DNA from: a virus
Virus record (IMG/VR): IMGVR_UViG_3300020048_000018
Coordinates: 96,001-160,000 of that record
DNA: 64,000 nt
Strand: one strand, 5' to 3'
Shown one piece after another: positions 2,328-52,009 of the stretch; the first letter of the stretch is position 1, and each line of letters opens with the position of its first letter. The notes under the pieces were generated by a model that saw nothing but the letters and a program-made list of their open reading frames with translations, had not been told where the DNA came from and searched no databases. Position numbers and translations under genes: made by a program.

Positions 2328-2395
2328 TAATTGAAAGGCTAAATAGAAAGGAACAGGGAAACCCTGAAATAGCGTTTGTAGAAGTTTCCTATTAA

Positions 2396-2425
2396 AAAGG
2401 GTGTCCAGAAAACTGGACACCCTTT
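2396..2425. terminator. Bidirectional terminator
   Basis: aaaagggtgtccag-aaaa-ctggacaccctttt between convergent genes. Confidence 0.85.
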
Positions 2426-2435
2426 TGATTTAGAT

Positions 2436-4463
2436 TTAAGATACGTCTGGAAGTATCTTTTCGGAATATGTAACCCAATTAATAGCATTCTTGTATTCAG
2501 AATAAGACACAGATGGAACAATAATTTGTACAACAGAACTTGGAAATACCAAGGTTCCAATATTTGTAAGTGGTGAAGACCTATTAACTATTACGGTATG
2601 CAACGCATTGCACCCAAGGAAAGCCGAGTTCCCAATAACATTAACAGACTCAGGAAGGGTTATTGTTGTTATAGCTTGACAGCTTTGGAAAGAAGACTCC
2701 CCTATTGTTAAAATACCTGAAGGAAGTATCACACTTAAAAGTGCAGTACAACTCTGGAATAATTTATCTGCAATATTTGTAATTCCTTGAGGAAGTACAA
2801 GAGAAGAAATCTTTGAGCATCCTTGGAATGCACCAGAACCAATTGTGGTTACAGTTGAGGGAACCTCTAATACTTCAAGGTTATAACAATTTTGAAAGGT
2901 GTTAGAGTTTATTGAAACTAGATTATTCGGAAGTGTTACAGAAACTAGCTGAGTACAGGAAATAAATGCTCCTGCCCCAAGAGATAATACTGTCTGAGGA
3001 ATTACCATGCTCGTTAGCATTGAACACTGACTAAACGCATTTGTCCCTATTGAGGTTAAAGATGAAGGAAGGGTAACATTTACCATTAAGCTACACCCCG
3101 AGAAAGTTCCTGACCCAATAGTTTTCACGGAAGATGGGATAGATAAAGAAGTAATCCCTGAGTTCTTAAATGCATTGTCATCTATTTTAGTTAGACTGCT
3201 TGGAAGACCAACTGTAGAAAGGGATGTACATCCAGAGAATATTCCTTCTGGTAGGATTGAAATTTTATTTGGGACAACAATATCCGTTAGGGAAGTGCAA
3301 CCATCAAAGGCACTTGTTCCTATGAAAGTAAGGGTGTATGGCAAGTCTATTGAAGTTAGTTCAGTACAACCTGCAAAAACAGAAGACCCTAATAGGTTTA
3401 ATGTTGAAGGTAACACGATTTCACTTAATACTTTACATCCTGCAAAAGCGTTTTCTCCAATGCTATTTATTTCGTCCTGAAGTACAATTGAAGAAAGGGA
3501 TTCACAACCAAAGAATAAGTTTGAAGGAATAGTGGTTATTGAGGAAGGAATACTTATTTCAACAAGGGAGGAATTAGAAAAAGAACCAGAACCAATTGAA
3601 GTAACTGTTGGAGGAATTACAATATTTGTAAGACCAGAACAATTCTCAAATACACCAGACCCTATATAAGTCACCGATTCAGGAATTATTAGTGTAGTAA
3701 TAGGAGAGTTTTTGAAAGCATTATCTTCTATACGAACAATAAAATCTGGTATCGATACAACGGTTTCAGTTCCTACAAACGAAGTTAGATTAGTTCCTGT
3801 AATAACAAAACTGGATAGGTCTGTTGTCATAGGATAAATTATATCAGCATACATAGAAAAATATTCAGAACTTTTATAAGCTTCCACGCTCTCATTTGGA
3901 ACTAAAATAACAAAGTTTGGACTACACCCAAGAAATACATCTACTCCTTGGGTAGGTGGAGATATTTGATTGTAAATTGCATAGGAAAGGGACTCACAAT
4001 TCTCAAAAGAGCTTGAACCTATTGAATTAATATTTTCCATAAACTCGATGTGAGTCAAGTTAGTACCAAAAAAGGAGTTGCTTTCAAGAGTAGTAAGGCT
4101 TTGGGGTAATTTTATTCCTGATAGTTTTGTACATCCTTCAAAAGCTCCATACCTAATTTCTAATAAACCAGAAGGAAAAATAACATCTGTAATATATTCC
4201 TTATCCTTAAACACATTTTGATATATGCTTAATACTCCATCAGGTATTATTACATAACTACTTAAGCTGTTGTAAGAAGACAATCCAGATTCATCTATAA
4301 CAAAAGTAGGTACATCCCCTTGTACTGCGATAAGTCTAATCAAAGAACTATAAGTTCTAAAAGGTAACGAGGGTGATACTTCTACCCCTTTCTCAATTAA
4401 AGCTGACCTTATCATGGCTTTTGTTTCTCTTAAATATTCAAGTTTGTTCAATATGATGCTCAT
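2436..4463 (-). CDS. BspA-type (LRR_5) leucine-rich-repeat protein, putative receptor-binding/fibre protein
   Basis: Many (L/I)xxIxIPxSVTxIGxxAFxxCxxL repeats. N-terminus LNKLEYLRETKAMIRSALIEKGV resembles a phage fibre attachment segment. Confidence 0.85.
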   Translation of the reverse strand: MSIILNKLEYLRETKAMIRSALIEKGVEVSPSLPFRTYSSLIRLIAVQGDVPTFVIDESGLSSYNSLSSYVIIPDGVLSIYQNVFKDKEYITDVIFPSGLLEIRYGAFEGCTKLSGIKLPQSLTTLESNSFFGTNLTHIEFMENINSIGSSSFENCESLSYAIYNQISPPTQGVDVFLGCSPNFVILVPNESVEAYKSSEYFSMYADIIYPMTTDLSSFVITGTNLTSFVGTETVVSIPDFIVRIEDNAFKNSPITTLIIPESVTYIGSGVFENCSGLTNIVIPPTVTSIGSGSFSNSSLVEISIPSSITTIPSNLFFGCESLSSIVLQDEINSIGENAFAGCKVLSEIVLPSTLNLLGSSVFAGCTELTSIDLPYTLTFIGTSAFDGCTSLTDIVVPNKISILPEGIFSGCTSLSTVGLPSSLTKIDDNAFKNSGITSLSIPSSVKTIGSGTFSGCSLMVNVTLPSSLTSIGTNAFSQCSMLTSMVIPQTVLSLGAGAFISCTQLVSVTLPNNLVSINSNTFQNCYNLEVLEVPSTVTTIGSGAFQGCSKISSLVLPQGITNIADKLFQSCTALLSVILPSGILTIGESSFQSCQAITTITLPESVNVIGNSAFLGCNALHTVIVNRSSPLTNIGTLVFPSSVVQIIVPSVSYSEYKNAINWVTYSEKILPDVS

Positions 4464-5212
4464 TTCTTTTCCTCTTTATATGTAATTATTTTTGAAGTTG
4501 TTTTGCCAACAAGATACCAGCAGTAAAGGATGCAATAGAAGACAAGACTAATCCACCAATAAGTAGCTTGTTCTTTAAGATTAAAGATTTTATTTGTTTC
4601 TGGTCCTTGTCCACTGATTCCTGTAAGGTTGTTGAGGTCTCCTGTGATAGTGTCAACAAGTCGGATACTCCTTTCAATTCCGCTTCCAAGTTTGCTATTA
4701 TAAGCTTCAATTGACCTATTATATCCTGTAAGCTTGTCTGTTGAATCAAGGCTTGATCTAATTGCTTCTGAAGCTGTTGTATTTTCAACTCCGAGCTGTC
4801 CAGTAATTTCTTGGAGTTGGCTAAGGAAGACCTTGCTTTCAGTAAGAGTAATGTTAAGCTCTTTATTTCGTTCTGTGAGTTCTTCAACAGTACTTGTGAG
4901 AGTTCCAACTGTTTTGAGGCTTCCATCAAGTTCTGTTTTAGCAGAATCAAGTTGTCCACGGAGGGTTGAAACGAGTAGCTTTGAATCTGAATAGTTGTTG
5001 CTTGTGCTGATAATGGAAGTGATAAGAACAATGTTGAGAACAATAGATATGCCACAACCAATGTAAAATGCTTTCTTAATTTTATCATTAGAGATTTCCT
5101 TTATAGGGAGTATTTTTGAAAAGTTTTCTGCTGAAAAAGTTTCTTTTAATTTATCAAATGCTTCAGACTTTATCTTTTTTAGACCTGAGAAAAGTATTGC
5201 TCTTATATTCAT
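4460..5212 (-). CDS. Membrane-anchored coiled-coil protein (i-spanin-like, outer gene of an overprinted pair)
   Basis: TM at about aa 49-69, coiled-coil middle, hydrophobic C-terminus. AAGGG RBS and ACTAATT motif upstream. Confidence 0.7.
   Translation of the reverse strand: MNIRAILFSGLKKIKSEAFDKLKETFSAENFSKILPIKEISNDKIKKAFYIGCGISIVLNIVLITSIISTSNNYSDSKLLVSTLRGQLDSAKTELDGSLKTVGTLTSTVEELTERNKELNITLTESKVFLSQLQEITGQLGVENTTASEAIRSSLDSTDKLTGYNRSIEAYNSKLGSGIERSIRLVDTITGDLNNLTGISGQGPETNKIFNLKEQATYWWISLVFYCILYCWYLVGKTTSKIITYKEEKK
4486..5088 (-). CDS. Signal-peptide + coiled-coil + C-terminal TM protein, embedded in another frame of 4460..5212
   Basis: Own RBS (AAGGA, 8 nt before ATG 5088). Signal peptide ending SAQA, Leu heptads, C-terminal LLIGGLVLSSIASFTAGILLA. 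Confidence 0.65.
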   Translation of the reverse strand: MIKLRKHFTLVVAYLLFSTLFLSLPLSAQATTIQIQSYSFQPSVDNLILLKQNLMEASKQLELSQVLLKNSQNEIKSLTLLLLKARSSLANSKKLLDSSELKIQQLQKQLDQALIQQTSLQDIIGQLKLIIANLEAELKGVSDLLTLSQETSTTLQESVDKDQKQIKSLILKNKLLIGGLVLSSIASFTAGILLAKQLQK

Positions 5213-5337
5213 TTTTTACCCTTTCGCTTATGAATTAGTTGCAAGAAATTATTATTACTTTTTTTATAAATTTAATCAAAATTCCAAGTATCCCTGTTAA
5301 TATATCATATATAGACAATACGAATTAGGAGAAATTA

Positions 5338-5625
5338 ATGATCAGTGCTACCCTTCAAACAAACTTTGTAAAGGTTTTGAGTGACTTGAAACTATACAAT
5401 GAATCTCATGATGTTCTTGAGGTTGAATCAGATGACAACCTTATTGAAGTAACCCATAAAAATGGAAAGATTTTTACTTTTTATCTCGACCCTATCACAC
5501 AAGGTGGGTCAAAGGTTTCACAGCTAACTTACATCGACGATGAGGGAAAGAAATTTCTTGGATTTGTTCATGATGAAAATGATGAAAAAGATATCCGATC
5601 TGGAATTAAAAAAGTTTTCATGTAA
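5338..5625 (+). CDS. Hypothetical protein
   Basis: AGGAG RBS, preceded by a TGTTAATATA motif. Confidence 0.7.
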   Translation: MISATLQTNFVKVLSDLKLYNESHDVLEVESDDNLIEVTHKNGKIFTFYLDPITQGGSKVSQLTYIDDEGKKFLGFVHDENDEKDIRSGIKKVFM

Positions 5626-5764: not shown

Positions 5765-7042
5765 ATGAATAGAATACAACTTCTCAGATCACAAACCAAG
5801 TCAAGCTTGCCTGAACTTAAATATGGTGAACTTGCCTATCTAAAAAACAAAGAACTTATTGTAGGAAATGGGGGAGATGGCGAAGACCTAGTTATTAATG
5901 ACTGGAAAAATATCATCAACAAACCTGTAGCTCTCCTTGAGTTAGCAAGTACAAGTCTAATAACCGAATCCCAACATTTCATGAGAATTACCAACGCCCA
6001 AGGATGTAGATGGGAGATAGTCTACAGAGACGAATCAAACTCAAATGTTAGATTCGATACAATCATGTCCGTACTTGGCTCAAATGAAACCATTAAATGG
6101 ACAGAAACCTCAACCGGATCTATTGGAGACACCTCAGGGATATCCCCCATGTTTACCGTTGTAGATAGAGATATTATCTTGAGTTTTGAAGTTACCTCAG
6201 GAGTTTGGAATGTATCAGTTAATCCAAGCCCCTTATCTTTTAATAATTCAACAGTAATCGTACAACTTCTTGAAGACGCTGTTTCAAATGGTGGGTATAG
6301 TTTTACTCCACCCTCATATGCTCAAGTTGGTTTTAGAATTGACCTCAATGCTACCCTAATTACAAACCCAATACCCGGAACCTACTCAGGAGTCTCCTTC
6401 ACAAATCCTATCTCACTTAATACCTATGGAAATTATATTTTTAATGACTGTGATTTTCCTCTTGGATTTGAAAACATTTCCGGTGGTGCAGGAGTATCAA
6501 GAACAGTAGAATTAAATCACTGTAGAGTTAGTTCCTCAGGTTTATTTTTTGAGGATGGTGGTCAAAAAGATTGGAAAGTTACTTGGAGTTATATTTCAAG
6601 CGATAGAGAACAAGCCTTTAGTGCAACAGGTGTATTAGGTATAACTGATTATACTTCACCAACCCCTTGTATAGTAGAAGACTGTATTATTGAACTACAT
6701 AATTTAGGTACTCCTGAAATAGAAGTAGAAGCCTATATCTCAAGCGGGGGTAATGGACTCACTTTCAAGAGAGTTCGATTTATTACTCAAGGACCAAAAG
6801 TTGATGGAATAACTGGTCAATTTGCTGTTATCGCACACTCAGGAAATAACGCACTGTTCGATACCTGTGAGTTCCTTACAGAAAACTGTGCTGACTATAC
6901 TGTATTCTCAGATGGAACTAATGTACTGTTTAAGGATTGTAAGTTTGCAAAGGGTAAACTCGGATACTATGACACTCTGTACCCAGTAGATGAGACATAC
7001 TTAAGATGTGTAGATATAACTTCTGGTGAATCAATACACTAA
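5765..7042 (+). CDS. Putative virion structural/tail protein with beta-helix-like C-terminus
   Basis: N-terminus IQLLRS...LKYGELAY resembles a tail-spike attachment segment. C-terminal FxxCxF-type repeats. Confidence 0.55.
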   Translation: MNRIQLLRSQTKSSLPELKYGELAYLKNKELIVGNGGDGEDLVINDWKNIINKPVALLELASTSLITESQHFMRITNAQGCRWEIVYRDESNSNVRFDTIMSVLGSNETIKWTETSTGSIGDTSGISPMFTVVDRDIILSFEVTSGVWNVSVNPSPLSFNNSTVIVQLLEDAVSNGGYSFTPPSYAQVGFRIDLNATLITNPIPGTYSGVSFTNPISLNTYGNYIFNDCDFPLGFENISGGAGVSRTVELNHCRVSSSGLFFEDGGQKDWKVTWSYISSDREQAFSATGVLGITDYTSPTPCIVEDCIIELHNLGTPEIEVEAYISSGGNGLTFKRVRFITQGPKVDGITGQFAVIAHSGNNALFDTCEFLTENCADYTVFSDGTNVLFKDCKFAKGKLGYYDTLYPVDETYLRCVDITSGESIH

Positions 7043-7067: not shown

Positions 7068-8918
7068 ATGAGTGAACTACTGAACAAAATAAATTACTTG
7101 ACTGAAACGAAAAACCTGATGAAAGCAAAATTAGGTACAACCTCTGACATCTTGAGAGACTATGTTCCTCTCATGAAATATGATGACGGAACAGCTCCAA
7201 AAGAATGGAGCGAAGCTGATTGGTTAGATGTTTATAATAGTTACCAAAGACCTGCTGATTGGTTAACAATTCCTACAATTTTGGAATCTGAACAAAAAGT
7301 AATTGGTCTCTATCCAGTTTACGACCATGACTCAAATTTCGTTGCAGTTACAATCTCAGGAAATTATTCCGTAGACTGGGGTGATGGAGTTACAGAAAAC
7401 TTCGTAGCAGGTGTGAAAGCTGAACATAGTTATGACTATGCAACTTGTGGAAATCTTTCTACATTAGGCTACAAGCAGGTATTAATTACGATTACTCCTC
7501 AAGCAACTTTTAATTTGACCTCAGTAAACTTAGGGGTTTTTCATACTTCAGCACCAAATAGCCCCAATTCATTTTTAGACATTTCTGGGAATGGAAGTTT
7601 AATTACTCTCTTTAATGTTCAAAACTTACCTATATTAAACTCTTTTAGTTTAGGATTAAATAATATTACAAACTTTTCTTATTTGTTTTATGGTTGTCCT
7701 TCTTTACAAACTATCCCACTTCTAAATACAAGTTTAGGTACAAACTTTCAATCTATGTTTTATACTTGTCTTGCACTACAAACTATTCCACTTTTTGATA
7801 CAAGTAAAGGTACAAACTTTTCTCAGATATTTAGTAATTGTACTGCCTTGCAAACGATTCCACTTCTTAATACAAGTTTAGGTACTGACTTTTCTGGTAT
7901 GTTTATTAATTGTACTTCCTTAAAAACAATTCCACTTCTCGATACAAGTAATGGTACAAACTTTTCTGCTATGTTTCAGAATTGTTATTCCTTACAAACG
8001 ATTCCCCTTCTTGATACAAGTTTAGGTACAACCTTTTCTCAGATGTTTAATATGTGTAAGTCATTACAAACGATTCCACTTATTGATACAAGTTTAGGTA
8101 CAAATTTTTCTATTATGTTTACTAGTTGTTATTCCTTACAAACGATTCCACTTCTCGATACAAGTTTAGGTACAAACTTTACTTCTATGTTTAGTAGTTG
8201 TACTTCCTTACAAACGATTCCTCTTCTTGATACAAGTTCAGGTACAAACTTTACTTATATGTTTAGTGGTTGTTCTTCATTACAAATTATCCCACTTCTC
8301 AATACAAGTTTAGGTACAGGACTTGGGGCTATGTTTAGTGATTGTACTTCCTTACAAACGATTCCGATTCTTGATACAAGTAAATGTACAAACTTTACTT
8401 CTATGTTTCAATCTTGTAAATCATTACAAACTATTCCACTTCTTGATACAAGTTTAAGTTCAAACTTTTCTTCTATGTTTTATGATTGTCCTTCCTTACA
8501 AACGATTCCACTTATTGATATAAGTTTAGGTACAGACTTCTCTTATATGTTTTATAATTGTAAATCCTTACAAAGTATTCCACTTCTCAATACAAATTTA
8601 GGTACAAACTTTAATTCTATGTTTAATGGTTGTCCTTCCTTACAAAGGATTCCACTTCTCGATACAAGTAAGGGTACGAGCTTTACGGCTATGTTTCAAG
8701 GTAGTTCTTCATTAGGGAAAGCAACTTTACTAAACACGAAAACAACAATTTCATTTGAAAGTTGTAAGTTGAGTAAATCCGCTCTTGTTGATATTTTTAA
8801 TAATTTAGCAACAGTGACTGGTCAGACTATTACTATTACAGGAAATTACGGTGCATCTTTATTAACCGCAGAGGATAGATTAATTGCAACAAATAAAGGT
8901 TGGACAATAGTTGGATAA
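7068..8918 (+). CDS. Putative receptor-binding fibre protein with DUF285/BspA-like 24-aa LRRs
   Basis: 14 repeats of CxSLQTIPLLDTSLGTNFxxMFxx. VDWGDG PKD-like motif. N-terminus is similar to that of 2436..4463. Confidence 0.75.
   Translation: MSELLNKINYLTETKNLMKAKLGTTSDILRDYVPLMKYDDGTAPKEWSEADWLDVYNSYQRPADWLTIPTILESEQKVIGLYPVYDHDSNFVAVTISGNYSVDWGDGVTENFVAGVKAEHSYDYATCGNLSTLGYKQVLITITPQATFNLTSVNLGVFHTSAPNSPNSFLDISGNGSLITLFNVQNLPILNSFSLGLNNITNFSYLFYGCPSLQTIPLLNTSLGTNFQSMFYTCLALQTIPLFDTSKGTNFSQIFSNCTALQTIPLLNTSLGTDFSGMFINCTSLKTIPLLDTSNGTNFSAMFQNCYSLQTIPLLDTSLGTTFSQMFNMCKSLQTIPLIDTSLGTNFSIMFTSCYSLQTIPLLDTSLGTNFTSMFSSCTSLQTIPLLDTSSGTNFTYMFSGCSSLQIIPLLNTSLGTGLGAMFSDCTSLQTIPILDTSKCTNFTSMFQSCKSLQTIPLLDTSLSSNFSSMFYDCPSLQTIPLIDISLGTDFSYMFYNCKSLQSIPLLNTNLGTNFNSMFNGCPSLQRIPLLDTSKGTSFTAMFQGSSSLGKATLLNTKTTISFESCKLSKSALVDIFNNLATVTGQTITITGNYGASLLTAEDRLIATNKGWTIVG
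7695..8702 (+). repeat. Tandem array of 14 x 72-bp coding repeats
   Basis: The acaagt(tta)ggtaca core recurs every 72 nt (e.g. 7728, 7800). Confidence 0.9.
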
Positions 8919-11773: not shown

Positions 11774-12625
11774 TTAAGAAAACTTAATTGCAAAATAAAA
11801 TATTATACTAAAAACAGAAAGTACAGAAATACCAACTATCAAGGGGACTCTCATTATCCAAATCCATTTTTTTATTTTTGTACTTAGATAATTTCTTTCT
11901 TTATAAAGTTTTGCACTATCTCCATCTACTGCACTCCAAGCCTCTTTAATAAACTTAAAGTCTTCATAAGGAAGAATAGTATAGCCCTTGTTTGCCCAAG
12001 AAGTGCCCCAGCTATTCCTTACAATAAATCCTAATTCATCATATCCTACAATTGTCATTGCATGTTTACCTACCTTTATGTCTTCTACTCTTTCTTTTTT
12101 CCAAAGAGAAGATCCATAATTGTATACATCAACAACTATCATGCAAGGTCCATAGGCAATTAAAGCTTTTTTCATACCATCAATTGTTTTAACCTTTGCA
12201 TAGCTTTTTATTGCGAAAGGAAGCGAGTTTTTAATTAATTCTGAGGAAGGGATACTGATAAGCTTTTCGTTATCAACATAAGGAAACTCCTTTTCCAGAG
12301 AAATTCCTTTTGTGTATAAAATTGACATAGCATCTCTTGGATACATACCACTAAAAGGTTTAGTCATTCGTTGGGAATATACATATAAGGGGCTAGTGTA
12401 TCCTTCAATTTTAGAATCAATCTTCTCTTGATAATCTTTTATTGTGGAAACCGTCATAGCAACACAAGAGCCTAGAGTGCCTTGATTTCTGACAGGAAAA
12501 AGTTTATCTACCAATGAAAAAGTTTCTGGTAGATTTGAAGAAAATGCAATTGACTTGAAAACTTTTTCAATTTTCCAATCACGCAAATCAAATTTAGACT
12601 TTAAAGAACCTAAATAAAAATCCAT
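11774..12625 (-). CDS. C1 (papain-like) cysteine peptidase with C-terminal TM
   Basis: VRNQGTLGSCVA (Gln/Cys), KHAMTIVGY (His), VRNSWG (Asn). Hydrophobic tail. Confidence 0.9.
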   Translation of the reverse strand: MDFYLGSLKSKFDLRDWKIEKVFKSIAFSSNLPETFSLVDKLFPVRNQGTLGSCVAMTVSTIKDYQEKIDSKIEGYTSPLYVYSQRMTKPFSGMYPRDAMSILYTKGISLEKEFPYVDNEKLISIPSSELIKNSLPFAIKSYAKVKTIDGMKKALIAYGPCMIVVDVYNYGSSLWKKERVEDIKVGKHAMTIVGYDELGFIVRNSWGTSWANKGYTILPYEDFKFIKEAWSAVDGDSAKLYKERNYLSTKIKKWIWIMRVPLIVGISVLSVFSIIFYFAIKFS

Positions 12626-12631
12626 AATAAA

Positions 12632-13279
12632 TTACTCCTTATCCCCAAAAATAGATTCACCTTTAACAAGCCAAGATGTACCAAAAGCATATAACATAAT
12701 AAACTCAATGATTAAAATAATAACATTGTCCTGCATTTCTACTCTACTTATTATCAAAGTCATAACAGATAAAATAATAAAACCAACAGCCATAATTAGA
12801 CCACAAGAAATATAAATTAAGTTTCTAAGTTTCTTTTTATCTGTCATGGTCTCTTTATTTCCTGTCCTTGTGAATAAAAAAATACAATTATAAGATAAAA
12901 GTAAAAAGAAGGTAGTAGCAAAGAACAGATGAATCCAACCCGAAATGAAAGGAGGTAATTGAAATACTCCTATAGGTAAAACTCCGTCATTAACCGTAGA
13001 TGCAGGAACAAGAGCAATAATTATTCCAGATATTCCAATTAGGGTTGTAATTATGTTATCCAATTTTGAGTATCCAAAATAAGTTATACAAAACAGACTT
13101 ATACCAAATAAAATTCCTACAAACACATCTTGCATATTAGTATAATAATATGCGCTTATATTTGGTTGTATACCATGTTTACTTAATATTCCCCCTATCA
13201 AACATGACAAAGGCAATAAAAAAGCTAAAAACCCTATCAACCTTCTTAAGCTTCTATACGAGATAATAATTGAATCCAT
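12632..13279 (-). CDS. Multi-pass membrane protein (DUF998-like)
   Basis: SYRSLRRLIG, ISAYYYT and HLFFA motifs, about 5-6 TM segments. Confidence 0.7.
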   Translation of the reverse strand: MDSIIISYRSLRRLIGFLAFLLPLSCLIGGILSKHGIQPNISAYYYTNMQDVFVGILFGISLFCITYFGYSKLDNIITTLIGISGIIIALVPASTVNDGVLPIGVFQLPPFISGWIHLFFATTFFLLLSYNCIFLFTRTGNKETMTDKKKLRNLIYISCGLIMAVGFIILSVMTLIISRVEMQDNVIILIIEFIMLYAFGTSWLVKGESIFGDKE

Positions 13280-20181: not shown

Positions 20182-22038
20182 TTATATTGAATCGTAGGAA
20201 AAAACAAGTTCCTTTAATACATCTTTTCTTAATTGGGAGTCCTTACCAAACCAAAGATTTAATGAACTCTCAGTATCATCATCCAATTCGAAAGTTTGAA
20301 TCATTGTATCTAAACCGTCTTTTGCAATAATAAACTGCAAATCAGTTTTCTTCCAAGAACCTAAACCTTTTGAGTAGTATACCGGAGGTTTCAAATCCTT
20401 TCCATCTTTCATGGAGTAAACCCATTTGTCAGGTTTTCCATCCTTACCTTTCGTATTCATAATTGGGGTATTAAGAAATCGAATCTTACCTTCCCTTAAA
20501 AGAGTTTTTGCAAACCTGAAAAAGAAGGCTATAAGTAATCCACGAATATGAAGACCATCCGTATCTTGGTCGGAAGCAATAAGAACATAATCAAATTCCA
20601 TAGTGGTATTGTCATCTTTTGACATACTAATACCCATAATAGAACATACATTAATAAGCTCTTCATTTGCAACTAGGTCTTTCATCTTTGCTTCATAAAC
20701 ACTTAAAGGTTTTCCTCTCAAGGGGAAGTACCCATAGTCCTGTCTCCCTAAAATATCAGAAAGTGAGTTTGAAGCGGAATCCCCTTCAGTAAGTACAATG
20801 TACTTATTTTTATTAATACTTGGTAAATATTTTGGAATTATTTTTTTCTTATTTACTTTCTCTGCGGAACTAAGTTCTTTTCGTAAAGCAAACTCTTCTT
20901 TAATCTTAAAGTTTTCTTCAATAGAAAATAGAATATCTTTATTCTTCAATAATTGGGAACCCAGTTTATCCAGATCAATCCCTGTTAAATAATCCTTAAC
21001 TTCTGGTATTGAATTTGATAAAAATTCTTTTGTTTGTGAATCAAATCTCATATTAATAAAATCATTAAAAAATGCAAATACAAAAAGTTTGTTTTTAATA
21101 TCAGAAGGTTTTATTGTCTTATATTTCTTTTCCAACTTTACCTTCAAGAAGTTTACCACATAACTTGAAATGTAATCAAGATGTATTCCTCCTTTAGAAA
21201 GATAGAGTGCATTTACATAAGAAAGAAATTTAAACTCTTCGGCAGAACCTACTGCAATAGTTACCTTATCATTTGAGATAGTCTCAAAGTTTGACATGAA
21301 GTAAGATAGGAACTGTTTATCTTTACAGGAAGGAATCTTTTCTCCGTTGAAGGTAAAACTGATGCCCGGGTGTATAAAACTTAGAAATACTAATCTGCTA
21401 TAAATAACATCTGAGTATATTGAAGAAAAGCCTTTAATCTTAAACCTTACAAAGTCTGGAGTAAAGGTAACAGTTGTACCCTTTTTTATAGAGGAGGTAA
21501 CTTTAACTGTATGAGAAGAATTATTATCTTTAACTTTTAACTTAAGTTGATTCTCACCATCAGAGGTAGTTACCTCAAAAAGTTTTGACCATATGCATGT
21601 TAAAGATGCGCCTATTCCATTGACGCCAATTGAGTTTCTATCATCATCACTAAAATTACTTCCAGCTTTCAGCTCTGTAAACATAGCTTCTGGAATATAC
21701 TTCTCAGAACCTTTAAGGATTTTAACTGGTATCCCTCTACCATTATCCTCAATTGTTATTGAGGTTTGATCTATTGTAATTTTTATTTTATTTGAAAACT
21801 TCTTACCAGACTTTGTGTATTCATCAATAGAGTTATCTAAAACCTCATCAATCATTTTTCTAAGTCCCGGTATATAAGAAACCTTCTTCATCTCAAACTT
21901 AGTTTCTTTTCTGTTAAAAAGATATTCTTCAATCTCATTGATATCTACAGAACCTAAATAGGTATTAGGTCTGAGCAAAACATGTTCTACGTCAGACAAT
22001 ATTCTATAATCATCTTCTCTATTTTGTTCTTTTTTCAT
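20182..22038 (-). CDS. Type II DNA topoisomerase large (ATPase + TOPRIM) subunit, T4 gp39/60-like
   Basis: EHVLLRPNTYLGS, EVLDNSIDE, DNGRGIP, GVNGIGA, LTEGDSA, PLRGK, SDQDTDGLHI, KGLGSW. Confidence 0.95.
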   Translation of the reverse strand: MKKEQNREDDYRILSDVEHVLLRPNTYLGSVDINEIEEYLFNRKETKFEMKKVSYIPGLRKMIDEVLDNSIDEYTKSGKKFSNKIKITIDQTSITIEDNGRGIPVKILKGSEKYIPEAMFTELKAGSNFSDDDRNSIGVNGIGASLTCIWSKLFEVTTSDGENQLKLKVKDNNSSHTVKVTSSIKKGTTVTFTPDFVRFKIKGFSSIYSDVIYSRLVFLSFIHPGISFTFNGEKIPSCKDKQFLSYFMSNFETISNDKVTIAVGSAEEFKFLSYVNALYLSKGGIHLDYISSYVVNFLKVKLEKKYKTIKPSDIKNKLFVFAFFNDFINMRFDSQTKEFLSNSIPEVKDYLTGIDLDKLGSQLLKNKDILFSIEENFKIKEEFALRKELSSAEKVNKKKIIPKYLPSINKNKYIVLTEGDSASNSLSDILGRQDYGYFPLRGKPLSVYEAKMKDLVANEELINVCSIMGISMSKDDNTTMEFDYVLIASDQDTDGLHIRGLLIAFFFRFAKTLLREGKIRFLNTPIMNTKGKDGKPDKWVYSMKDGKDLKPPVYYSKGLGSWKKTDLQFIIAKDGLDTMIQTFELDDDTESSLNLWFGKDSQLRKDVLKELVFSYDSI

Positions 22039-32134: not shown

Positions 32135-32857
32135 ATGAATTTTACAAAAGTACTGCTTTTAGCAGTAGGTTTATTTTTATTTTGTTCTACAATAACCTTA
32201 AATCTTATTATGTTTTCCAAAACAATTTCACCTATCAAACTAATAAGTGATTTAGGAGAACCTCAAAAAGCTTCCATGGAGGTATCCCCTTTTATTGGTC
32301 TAATTCCTGAGGTTGATGAGGTATATTCACCTTCCTTTGATGACATATACTTGTATATAAACTCAATTAGTAAAAAAAATCCTTCTAAGAATCAGCTCTC
32401 AAGAAAACAAATTTCGGATATAATACACTCTGTTGAGAAATATTGTGTTAAGTATGGAATTAATAAACTAACTATTTTTTCAATGATTAAAGTAGAATCA
32501 AATTATATCCTCACTATCCCTTCTTGGAAGGGTTCTGAATATGGTAGAGGATTACTTCAAGTAAGTAAAATAGCATTATTAGATTTTAATAACTGGACAG
32601 GTAATGAATACACCTCAGAAGATTTATATACTATAGAAAAAAATATTGAAGTAGGAATTTGGGCTTTTAATCAAAATTATCACTATGGTGTTGAAAATGG
32701 TTTTGAGGAAGGGGCTATAGTTGCCTATAATGTCGGGGTAGGTGATTATAAGAGACATAAAAAAGATTTATTATCAAATCAAATGTTTAAGGGTTTAACT
32801 TATGAATATTCAAGTAAAGTTCAGACTCAATATCAAATATTAATTTCATCCAACTAA
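32135..32857 (+). CDS. Lytic transglycosylase (SLT domain) with N-terminal TM
   Basis: MIKVESNY (catalytic Glu), GLLQV, NIEVG, AYNVG. Confidence 0.85.
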   Translation: MNFTKVLLLAVGLFLFCSTITLNLIMFSKTISPIKLISDLGEPQKASMEVSPFIGLIPEVDEVYSPSFDDIYLYINSISKKNPSKNQLSRKQISDIIHSVEKYCVKYGINKLTIFSMIKVESNYILTIPSWKGSEYGRGLLQVSKIALLDFNNWTGNEYTSEDLYTIEKNIEVGIWAFNQNYHYGVENGFEEGAIVAYNVGVGDYKRHKKDLLSNQMFKGLTYEYSSKVQTQYQILISSN

Positions 32858-47987: not shown

Positions 47988-48410
47988 ATGAAAAATATTT
48001 TATTCTCTCTTTTTCTTGTTGTTATTTTTACGTCTTGTCAAGAAAAGACTACGTATATTCCAATGACCGTTTGGGACAAAGGCTCCTATCAAATAATTAA
48101 GGTAGAGAAAACAAAGGACTATCCTGAGATATATTCCGTTGTTCTTAAAACCTCAATTGCTTCAGTTCCCGAGACAAGTAATGAAATACTTCCTGACTCA
48201 GAGGATAATTTTATACTTGACTATTCCCTTATAAAGGAAGAACATTCCAGTCTTTATAACAGGGTAATGGAACTAAGAAGTAAAAAACTTTCCAAGGAAG
48301 AAAGATATAGGCTTGTGTATCTCCTTGCTGACGAAACTGATAAATTAAATTCTTTGGCATTTAATCTTAAACAGGAAATCGAAAAACAATTCATGGAGGA
48401 AGGTAGATGA
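47988..48410 (+). CDS. Putative lipoprotein
   Basis: MKNILFSLFLVVIFTS-C signal. Confidence 0.7.
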   Translation: MKNILFSLFLVVIFTSCQEKTTYIPMTVWDKGSYQIIKVEKTKDYPEIYSVVLKTSIASVPETSNEILPDSEDNFILDYSLIKEEHSSLYNRVMELRSKKLSKEERYRLVYLLADETDKLNSLAFNLKQEIEKQFMEEGR

Positions 48411-50440: not shown

Positions 50441-50961
50441 TCGGAGTAACTGGTAAATCGGGATCTGGTAAATCAGAGTTCAGTAGACGCTTGGCAAATC
50501 TCTTAAATGCAAAACATATAGACATTGATAAAGTTGTACATAAGGAAATAGAAAAAAACCATTCTAAGATATGTGAATTGTTGGATATTCCTAAAACATC
50601 TATGGTAACAGATATTGGTGAAATTATTTTCACTAATAGGGAGAAATATAATCTTGTGGTAGGCTTAGTATGGACTCCCACTTTGTACGAAATAGAAAAA
50701 TTGATGGGAGAACATGATCGGGTTGTTCTTGATCACATCCTTCTTCCTCATATGGGCAGTCTTTGGGAACGGTGCGAATTAAAGTATCTTATTGAATGTG
50801 AGCGTACATTACGCTACAAGAGAATTTTTAAGAGAGATGGGATTTCACTCCGTACTCTCAAATTGAGAGAAAGTGCTTCTATTGAATATCAGGAAAATAT
50901 GTTTGATAGAATACTTACTGAGGAAAGGATTGCAGATATTTTTAAAGTAACCTATCCATAA
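50434..50961 (+). CDS. coaE: Dephospho-CoA kinase
   Basis: IGVTGKSGSGKS, IDIDKVVH, R..R...RDG. Overlaps coaD. Confidence 0.75.
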   Translation: MVIGVTGKSGSGKSEFSRRLANLLNAKHIDIDKVVHKEIEKNHSKICELLDIPKTSMVTDIGEIIFTNREKYNLVVGLVWTPTLYEIEKLMGEHDRVVLDHILLPHMGSLWERCELKYLIECERTLRYKRIFKRDGISLRTLKLRESASIEYQENMFDRILTEERIADIFKVTYP

Positions 50962-51001
50962 AATAGAGTAATTACCGAGAGTAGTTTTAAGGAAAAAATT
51001 G

Positions 51002-52009
51002 ATGAGTGATTTTTATAATATTATCTATGACCTTGATGAAGTTAAAAACTTCTATGATAAAGTATTGGCTGTCAAACCCTTGCTTCCTAATGAAGTTCGT
51101 TACGTGAGTTTATCCGTTAGGAACAAGTATTTGAATGAGGAAGAACGCAAATATTATAATTGCGGCAGGTCAGAAATGTTTGGTAAGCAGGTTGTTCGCC
51201 ACGATACTTGGGAAGCTTACAAACAAGCCTTATATCGCTATGAATGTAATAAGCTTGGTTACTTAACAAAGAATGGCATCCCTTACCCAGAGAAAGCAAT
51301 GGTATGTTATGCCAATATAAATCCCTGTGACTCTTTGGAAACAGTTAATGAGATGATGAAATCTATAACTGAGAATAAGGATGCACTGGTATATGCCGCT
51401 CTCAAAAACTCCAAGTACGGTATTAGTGAAGCGTTTCATAAAATAAGAAAGATTGAAGATACCATGATTTCCCTGTATGCTAGAAATGTTGGTTCGAGAA
51501 ATTGGATTGATATGGATTTAGATATTGGAAAAGATAATGTTATGGACATTATTTCTTTCGTAGAACCTTTACTTACCTTTATGGGTTTCACTGACCACTA
51601 CTGGGTAGACACTAAAGGTGGAGTTCACCTTCTCTTAAAAAAAGACGAGATGAAGTTCAATCCTGCTTTGGTATGTGATGTATGTTATATTGCTTACTGG
51701 TTGTATTCAGGGTATTACCTGAAAGGGTCAAGGATTCTTTTCGATATGAACAATGAGGCTCACAGAGATAGTATGCTTACCCTTTTTAAGGAAGTGGAAA
51801 TCATTCAAAACAAGAATCAAATGGTACCCCTAAGTGGCACATTGCAAGGTGGACATCAAGTGCGGATTCTTAACTTGGAAGGTTTGACTCTACACTCTGT
51901 AGATTCCCTAGTATATGAAATGCAAAATTTCTGTGAAGAGATGTTTAAGAAAAAGAATGAGTTGCTTCGGGTGATTAATTTTAAGAATAATAAGGTGGCG
52001 GTGAAATGA
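51002..52009 (+). CDS. AEP-superfamily (primase/polymerase-like) protein
   Basis: WIDMDLD (DxD), VDTKGGVH (motif II), VPLSGTLQ. Confidence 0.5.
   Translation: MSDFYNIIYDLDEVKNFYDKVLAVKPLLPNEVRYVSLSVRNKYLNEEERKYYNCGRSEMFGKQVVRHDTWEAYKQALYRYECNKLGYLTKNGIPYPEKAMVCYANINPCDSLETVNEMMKSITENKDALVYAALKNSKYGISEAFHKIRKIEDTMISLYARNVGSRNWIDMDLDIGKDNVMDIISFVEPLLTFMGFTDHYWVDTKGGVHLLLKKDEMKFNPALVCDVCYIAYWLYSGYYLKGSRILFDMNNEAHRDSMLTLFKEVEIIQNKNQMVPLSGTLQGGHQVRILNLEGLTLHSVDSLVYEMQNFCEEMFKKKNELLRVINFKNNKVAVK

Follow-up and report, generated by a model that had tools for sequence, protein, structure and literature searches.

Overlapping genes of a distantly T4-like phage contig: a 200-codon +1 frame fully embedded in a 250-codon gene, with two predicted, oppositely anchored envelope proteins

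The window analysed here is a stretch of 64,000 nucleotides (nt), comprising bases 96001-160000 of a 178,053-bp virus contig from IMG/VR (CheckV estimate 69% complete). On its minus strand an open reading frame (ORF) of 250 aa (4460..5212, henceforth outer) wholly encloses a second ORF of 200 aa (4486..5088, henceforth inner), whose start lies 124 nt after that of outer and which is therefore a fully embedded frame in the +1 register. A preliminary description of this DNA had pointed to two nested same-strand frames over about 600 nt and had read them as a lysis pair of the Rz/Rz1 kind; the layout stands exactly as described, and the functional reading is weighed below. The open +1 frame is not a product of chance, and the comparisons reported here make it very probable that outer and inner are a real gene pair, in which both frames are used and each is initiated at its own Shine-Dalgarno site. 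That the locus combines dual coding with an envelope location of both products is, taken as one statement, also likely.

Dual coding of the nested frames

In the window the +1 frame of outer remains open for 204 codons. When the outer protein was held fixed and its codons were resampled from the usage of the phage, none of 20,000 sequences reached 200 open codons (P < 5e-5; median 40), and permutation of its own synonymous codons gave probabilities of an open +1 frame of 1.5e-4 and 4e-4 in two runs. Elsewhere in the phage, the +1 frame of the 126 other long genes stays open for 121 codons at most. These figures agree with the earlier statement that an alternate frame of 200 codons is unlikely to stay open by chance. 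Because the scan spans very many genes, a P near 1e-4 in one genome is not decisive by itself, and it is the comparative data that settle the matter. The explanation against which these data have to be read is that only one of the two frames is translated, the other being open because AT-rich DNA coding for heptad repeats avoids stop codons.

Searches of INPHARED phages by tblastn, with both window proteins and the inner proteins of contigs L003 and L011 as queries, gave nothing, and pattern scans of IMG/VR, JGI metagenome contigs and GTDB genomes yielded no relatives with either single proteins or alignments. In a word-indexed search of 5.8 billion proteins outer matched only itself and inner matched nothing, and the neighbouring genes 5765..7042 and 5338..5625, used as queries, led to no syntenic relatives. 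An exhaustive HMMER search of 1.8 billion representatives with outer, in contrast to these, recovered P0002 (228 aa, 33% identity, E 8e-25) and P0003 (154 aa, E 7e-7), to which a profile search added P0004. The DNA of homologues was obtained for eleven contigs, several of them from global sewage surveys, and together with the window they make up three lineages: 1) the window itself; 2) L003 and L004; and 3) L005-L013. The phage of the window is uncultured and, like the second and third lineages, known from metagenomes only; two of the three lineages are represented by short contigs.

Both further lineages retain both frames, so that the outcome under which the preliminary description would have failed, namely homologues with only one open frame, did not materialize. 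In L003/L004 the +1 frame carries an ORF of 196 aa with a TTG start behind GGAGAGGAG, embedded as in the window; the L003 inner protein aligns to that of the window without gaps at 41% identity, and the outer proteins are 33% identical. In L005-L013 an outer-type ORF of 154 aa is followed 4 nt later by the start of an inner-type ORF of 200 aa, which extends 142 nt beyond the outer stop and thus gives an overlapped rather than an embedded layout. Across lineages the identity is 33-40% for outer and 30-41% for inner at ~59% nucleotide identity; even at this divergence both frames are open and keep their starts. In all three lineages inner has its own start with a Shine-Dalgarno sequence, 0-4 codons after an in-frame stop; in the window this stop is a TAA 4 codons upstream of ATG 5088, and the AAGGA that had been noted 8 nt before this ATG is indeed there. 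The probability of the +1 frame being open by synonymous-codon permutation is below 2e-4 in each of L003, L005 and L011, as compared with 4e-4 in the window.

In the third lineage the two starts form an ATGAATG double start behind one shared AAGGA (L005:156-162, with equivalent sites in L007-L013). With starts 4 nt apart behind a shared Shine-Dalgarno sequence, one initiation region would feed both frames.

The pattern of substitutions was examined in the third lineage by comparing L005 with L011, the proportions of synonymous (pS) and non-synonymous (pN) differences being obtained by Nei-Gojobori counting. 1) Identity at inner codon positions 1, 2 and 3 is 0.954, 0.855 and 0.855 in the overlap, and 0.761, 0.935 and 0.652 in the part of the inner-type ORF beyond it, the latter being the normal pattern of a single gene. 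2) pS is 0.19-0.21 in both frames of the overlap, but reaches 0.48 where the tail is coded by inner alone and 0.61 in the gene that flanks the pair; synonymous divergence is hence 2.5- to 3-fold lower in both frames, and only inside the overlap. 3) Fisher tests on third positions separate the overlap from the tail (p = 0.005) and from the flanking gene (p = 9e-9). 4) The dN/dS-type comparison gives a pN/pS of ~0.45 in each frame of the overlap and of 0.28 in the tail, which runs 47 codons past the overlap under purifying selection. 5) The variable sites number 25, 10 and 23 at outer codon positions 1, 2 and 3; they are fewest at position 2, so that the site where changes are non-synonymous in either frame is the most constrained. 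Between the window and L003, third-position identity is 46-47% in ordinary genes, 62% in outer and 50% in inner. Judged from these alignments, the substitution pattern is the one expected when both frames encode selected proteins.

Coding potential was scored with a Markov model of period three, for which the phage's other genes served as the training set. Outer scores 26, at the 24th percentile of real genes, and inner about -3, whereas the +1 frames of other genes score -62 ± 14 and never above -19. Measured against stop-free simulations of the +1 frame, the inner score stands at z = 6.3 under genome codon usage and at z = 3.5 under permutation of the outer gene's own codons; tested the other way round, outer reaches z = 5.1 and 4.0. 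The signal peptide ending in AQA (residues 28-30) and the C-terminal transmembrane segment (TM; residues 175-195), on which the preliminary description relied for inner, are both present. The hydrophobic ends of inner are, however, an automatic by-product of the outer DNA that codes for hydrophobic segments (P 0.3-0.6), and as they are expected from the overlap we do not count them as evidence. The coding-likeness of inner as a whole is not explained in this way, as the z values of 6.3 and 3.5 indicate.

Codon usage correlates with that of the genome at 0.58 for outer and 0.35 for inner, the corresponding values being 0.75 ± 0.11 for real genes and 0.36 ± 0.13 for +1 frames. The use of codon usage as a criterion for dating overlapping frames has been reviewed (PMC8227390). 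By this measure outer, with its normal codon usage and coding score, looks like the older, ancestral frame, and inner, with 23% Leu, 12% Gln and a codon usage like that of a +1 frame, looks like the overprinted one.

Some of the observations weigh against dual coding and would suit translation of a single frame. The codon-usage correlation of inner equals that of an ordinary +1 frame, its hydrophobic ends come with the TM segments of outer, and one homologue, the low-coverage sewage contig L013, carries a premature stop in the inner frame. Coiled-coil DNA can moreover produce long open frames without their being genes. In L003 an antisense ORF of 192 aa (L003:2979-3557, minus strand) lies over the pair in a run of 198 open codons, for which P = 0.34; it is closed in the other lineages, and we rejected it as a gene, since it is a composition effect and is not conserved. 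We nonetheless regard translation of one frame only as improbable, because three lineages at ~59% nucleotide identity keep the +1 frame open, with P at or below 4e-4 in each, the starts and Shine-Dalgarno sites are conserved, the inner-only tail is under purifying selection, the drop in synonymous divergence is confined to the overlap and affects both frames, and both conditional coding tests are significant.

With respect to L013, the change is CAA to TAA (L013:212-553), which cuts the inner-type ORF to 114 codons and leaves the outer-type ORF intact; it may be a real variant or a low-coverage error. The antisense ORF of L003 illustrates the long spurious ORFs that heptad-repeat DNA can give rise to.

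A further reading takes the locus as one gene in which a frameshift, programmed or due to an assembly error, joins the N-terminus of outer to the C-terminal TM of inner. Over the last 100 nt the inner frame does score higher than the outer one (2.7 vs -1.1), and the C-terminal segment of outer has many Trp, Tyr and Cys residues and contains rare codons. This same segment (YWWI...CW) and the basic tail after it are, however, conserved in P0002, inner has its own start, Shine-Dalgarno sequence and signal peptide in all lineages, and both frames are open from end to end, which a fusion would not need; no slippery site was noticed on reading the sequence, a formal search for one not having been made. 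The conserved outer C-terminus and the separate start of inner led us to discard the frameshift reading, which we consider highly improbable, in favour of two separately initiated genes.

The predicted proteins and their possible role

In all lineages the hydrophobic residues of both proteins recur with a sharp period of 3.5 residues. Outer is predicted to consist of a basic cytoplasmic N-terminus (residues 1-47), a TM (48-70), about 145 helical, heptad-periodic periplasmic residues and an aromatic hydrophobic segment, YWWI...CW (218-236), followed by the basic tail; the N-proximal TM, coiled coil and hydrophobic tail described earlier are thus recovered. The aromatic segment and the tail are absent from the third lineage. 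Inner begins with a charged start and a hydrophobic core, with small residues before a conserved Gln. About 12-18 non-helical residues follow as a short tip, after which an AlphaFold2 model (predicted local distance difference test, pLDDT, 81) has a single uninterrupted helix over residues 41-198. This helix comprises ~135 periplasmic residues, or ~20 nm, which makes it long enough to cross the periplasm, and then the C-terminal TM with a conserved IGG; a tail of 3-5 residues ends the protein across the family (5 in the window). Both products are accordingly predicted to be proteins of the cytoplasmic membrane, anchored in opposite ways and each with a helical periplasmic part of heptad periodicity, an arrangement that we consider likely.

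Among the searches for structural relatives, profile searches of the PDB returned generic coiled coils only, and Foldseek against BFVD gave no match below E = 2. Look-alikes of inner in the ESM Atlas (0.92-0.93) fall in unnamed clusters of Uroviricota and Spirochaetota proteins, 177-179 aa long, which serve as a lead only.

We propose that ribosomes would start separately at ATG 5212 and ATG 5088, in reading frames one base apart, and that the two proteins, carried by a single mRNA, would be made together. Outer would be held by its N-terminal TM with its N-terminus inside, and inner would lose its signal peptide and be held by its C-terminal TM, so that the helical rods of the two inner-membrane proteins would extend into the periplasm with their chains running in opposite directions and would probably pair side by side. 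More tentatively, the pair might attack the host envelope late in infection, helping to breach the outer membrane after the wall has been cut. In such a role it might be a lipoprotein-free counterpart of the spanins, a tentative analogy that is possible but doubtful. Its most specific form, a new class of lysis device that does without a lipoprotein and in which two coiled-coil rods, long enough for the periplasm, anchored in opposite ways and encoded in two frames of one DNA, bridge or fuse both host membranes at the end of infection, is rather unlikely.

The spanin analogy draws on the gene layout, which is that of Rz/Rz1 with a +1 frame in embedded and overlapped forms, on the periplasm-length rod and on the membrane-protein-rich context of the pair in L003. 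Compared feature by feature with the spanins, outer conforms by prediction to an i-spanin (one N-terminal TM, N-terminus inside, periplasmic domain), and the genes are adjacent and in the +1 frame where they overlap, embedded in the window and L003 and overlapped in L005-L012. The lipobox Cys of an o-spanin is missing: the inner protein of the window has no Cys at all, that of L003 has one before the hydrophobic core, and the third lineage has the non-canonical STLC/TLC, the phage's own lipoproteins having G or S before the Cys. A u-spanin would combine a lipobox with a C-terminal TM, of which inner has only the latter. As the defining lipoprotein feature is lacking, the pair falls outside every spanin family.

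Several further points weigh against a spanin-like role. 1) Inner has no lipobox, and its signal ends in AQA. 2) Neither protein has a significant match in Pfam, PHROGs or NCBIfam, and PF03245 (Rz) is absent from the contig. 3) The basic tail of outer suggests a second TM returning to the cytoplasm rather than an insert into the outer membrane. 4) The Atlas model of outer resembles helical hairpins of chemoreceptor type, and its AlphaFold2 model is of low confidence (pLDDT 48), too weak to decide. 5) The neighbourhood of the pair differs in all three lineages. 6) Outside the window the contig encodes, at 50822..51703 (L014:4823-5704), a type II membrane protein of 206 aa with one N-terminal TM and, with no gap between the genes, an 86-aa lipoprotein with the lipobox FVSC; from their sequences these could be a more conventional candidate for a spanin pair of the 'separated' layout. 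Of the Rz/Rz1-like lysis pair of the preliminary description, the nested +1 layout and the envelope character of the proteins are hence borne out, and the lysis function is a tentative reading; the lipobox and a family match are missing, and no fixed lysis cassette is apparent.

It is quite conceivable, though somewhat short of an even chance in our estimate, that the pair is real but forms another envelope module on a mobile accessory unit, serving superinfection exclusion, receptor masking or lysis timing in the manner of T and RI of phage T4. T, the holin, is a membrane protein of the ~220-250 aa class with one N-terminal TM and a large globular periplasmic domain, and RI is a secreted antiholin; outer matches T in size and topology, and the phage is itself distantly T4-like. 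Three different neighbourhoods would be in keeping with a self-contained cassette, the basic C-terminal tail of outer suggests that both its TMs lie in the inner membrane, and the phage has the other candidate spanin-type pair described above. Against this module stand the lack of sequence or profile similarity of the pair to any holin, antiholin or exclusion family, the globular rather than rod-like periplasmic part of T, and the length of the inner rod, which suits a periplasm-spanning role. The argument from mobility is weak as well: T4-like phages scatter their lysis genes anyway, so that a variable context says little. In the window no recognised holin or endolysin gene adjoins the pair.

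Locus, gene neighbourhoods and host

The features of the locus are collected in the table. Upstream of the pair, matches to sigma-70-like promoters are not more numerous in the region than in shuffled sequences. The ACTAATT motif to which the preliminary description drew attention is present (5233..5239, minus strand). The window, however, contains 8 copies of the 8-mer ACTAATTA where 7.3 are expected, which is no enrichment; ACTAATT(A) was for this reason dropped as a promoter mark, and the motif is given no weight. The pair is first in an operon of the window that continues with the fibre-like LRR_5 gene, the ATG of which overlaps the TGA stop of outer (ATGA).

Table. Features of the overlapping gene pair and its operon (window coordinates)
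Feature	Position	Strand	Remarks
Outer gene, 250 aa	4460..5212	-	Coding score within normal gene range; homologues P0002, P0003
Inner gene (putative), 200 aa, +1 frame, embedded	4486..5088	-	Homologous +1 ORFs in L003, L005-L012
Shine-Dalgarno sequence AAGGA of inner, 8 nt before ATG 5088	5097..5101	-	
Shine-Dalgarno sequence AAGGG of outer, 6 nt before ATG 5212	5219..5223	-	Direct sequence reading
Predicted outer TM (residues 48-70) and hydrophobic core of inner signal peptide, one DNA segment	5003..5071	-	
Predicted inner C-terminal TM (175-195, conserved IGG) and outer YWWI...CW aromatic segment, one DNA segment	4504..4566	-	
Sigma-70-like promoter match upstream of the pair, weak evidence	5251..5279	-	9/12 positions
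BspA-type LRR_5 fibre-like protein gene, downstream, co-transcribed	2436..4463	-	
Bidirectional intrinsic-terminator hairpin, 14 pairs, end of operon	2395..2426	.	

The neighbourhoods differ from lineage to lineage, with the LRR fibre gene in the first, membrane proteins in the second and an ADP-ribosyltransferase in the third. In L003 the genes ahead of the pair, with overlaps of 4 nt, encode two small multi-TM proteins (134 and 83 aa); further upstream are the genes of a two-TM protein of 356 aa, of a DUF998-like polytopic protein and, 2.4 kb upstream, of a membrane-anchored papain-like peptidase. In L007 and L008 (L007:213-482, L008:1-360) the pair is preceded by the ADP-ribosyltransferase (PF03496, E 6e-9), which recalls the Alt/Mod enzymes of T4. 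The papain-like (Peptidase_C1) and DUF998-like proteins of L003 (L003:3-1225) are 59% and 49% identical to the products of the window genes at 11774..13279 (minus strand); the two genes stand in swapped order in L003 and in the window, and the L003 peptidase ends in a TM. L005 has, immediately upstream of its pair, a homologue of the 299-aa gene at contig positions 21782..22678, outside the window, the +1 frame of which has the second-longest open run in the phage after that of outer (121 codons). Within the window, the LRR_5 protein and the DUF285 protein encoded at 7068..8918 (plus strand) share a similar N-terminal stretch of ~25 residues.

The contig codes for GroEL, for a FliM/FliN-like protein and for a split topoisomerase II of the T4 type. 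The topoisomerase II is ~35% identical to the versions of T4-like phages, and on this basis the phage is distantly T4-like. No match to lysozyme, Amidase_2, Amidase_3, M15_4 or Rz (PF03245) was found in the contig, and an SLT-domain protein is encoded at 32135..32857. As none of the classical endolysin families was found in the contig, the papain-like peptidase is a candidate for the wall-cutting enzyme. At least seven ORFs of the contig have a canonical lipobox (VVGC, FVSC, FTSC, LGGC, FISC, LVSC, LISC), those inside the window being at 47988, 48685, 49449, 52006 and 60814; this is an unusually high number for a phage and suggests a host with two membranes. That the host might be a spirochaete, as the Atlas look-alike clusters of inner would have it, is only a lead.

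Comparison with known systems

That genes overlap over long stretches of one strand is familiar from tiny viruses, and to our knowledge the accepted cases in tailed phages are essentially short genes of the Rz1 type. The present overlap, in which a whole 200-codon gene is embedded, two long structured helices are predicted as the products and conservation extends over three lineages, is exceptional for a tailed phage, and the arrangement has been retained down to ~59% nucleotide identity despite the large genome. Gene callers miss such genes; in two lineages inner is absent from the database of 5.8 billion proteins. The pair offers a clean natural example of two heptad-repeat proteins in one sequence, which should be useful for understanding how overprinting makes folded proteins, and it is a candidate answer to the question of how phages of double-membraned hosts manage without recognisable spanins. 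Being small and self-contained, it can be tested directly in laboratory strains.

As read from the sequences, the pair shares the genetic architecture of the spanins and a part of their topology, but not membership of a spanin family. The overlap of 200 codons compares with one of ~60 for the Rz1 gene of phage lambda, as is generally known. Spanin genes occur in three layouts (embedded, overlapped and separated), overlapping pairs having their second gene in +1, and mature lambda Rz1 has 40 aa (PMC6139136); like lambda Rz/Rz1, our family has its second gene in the +1 frame, and it displays two of the three layouts, embedded and overlapped. Outer resembles the i-spanin Rz in its N-terminal TM with the N-terminus inside and in its helical, coiled-coil-prone periplasmic part, and differs in that two lineages add a second hydrophobic segment and in the lack of a PF03245 match. 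The difference is larger for the second protein, as Rz1 is a short Pro-rich lipoprotein of the outer membrane, whereas inner, at 200 aa, lacks a lipobox and has one long helix with a C-terminal TM of its own. In having an export signal, a middle part of periplasmic length and a C-terminal TM, inner is closer to the topology of the u-spanin gp11 of phage T1 (PMC6139136). It departs from gp11 in that a signal of the signal-peptidase-I type (AQA) replaces the lipobox Cys, so that there is no lipid anchor in the outer membrane, and in that it always occurs with an overlapping partner gene.

With T and RI of T4 the pair has in common that a membrane protein of ~220-250 aa with an N-terminal TM is found with an exported partner in a T4-like phage; there is no sequence similarity, t and rI do not overlap, and the periplasmic domain of T is globular and not a heptad rod. 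A parallel to the mode of coding is furnished by the A/B/K/E genes of phiX174 (reviewed in PMC8227390), which likewise combine same-strand dual coding with one genome-like and one atypical frame and with suppressed synonymous change, but a phage with a contig of at least 178 kb is not short of coding space. Finally, new overprinted proteins tend to be disordered, according to the work of Rancurel et al. as it is cited in PMC6139136; unlike such proteins, both products of the present pair are predicted to form long structured helices.

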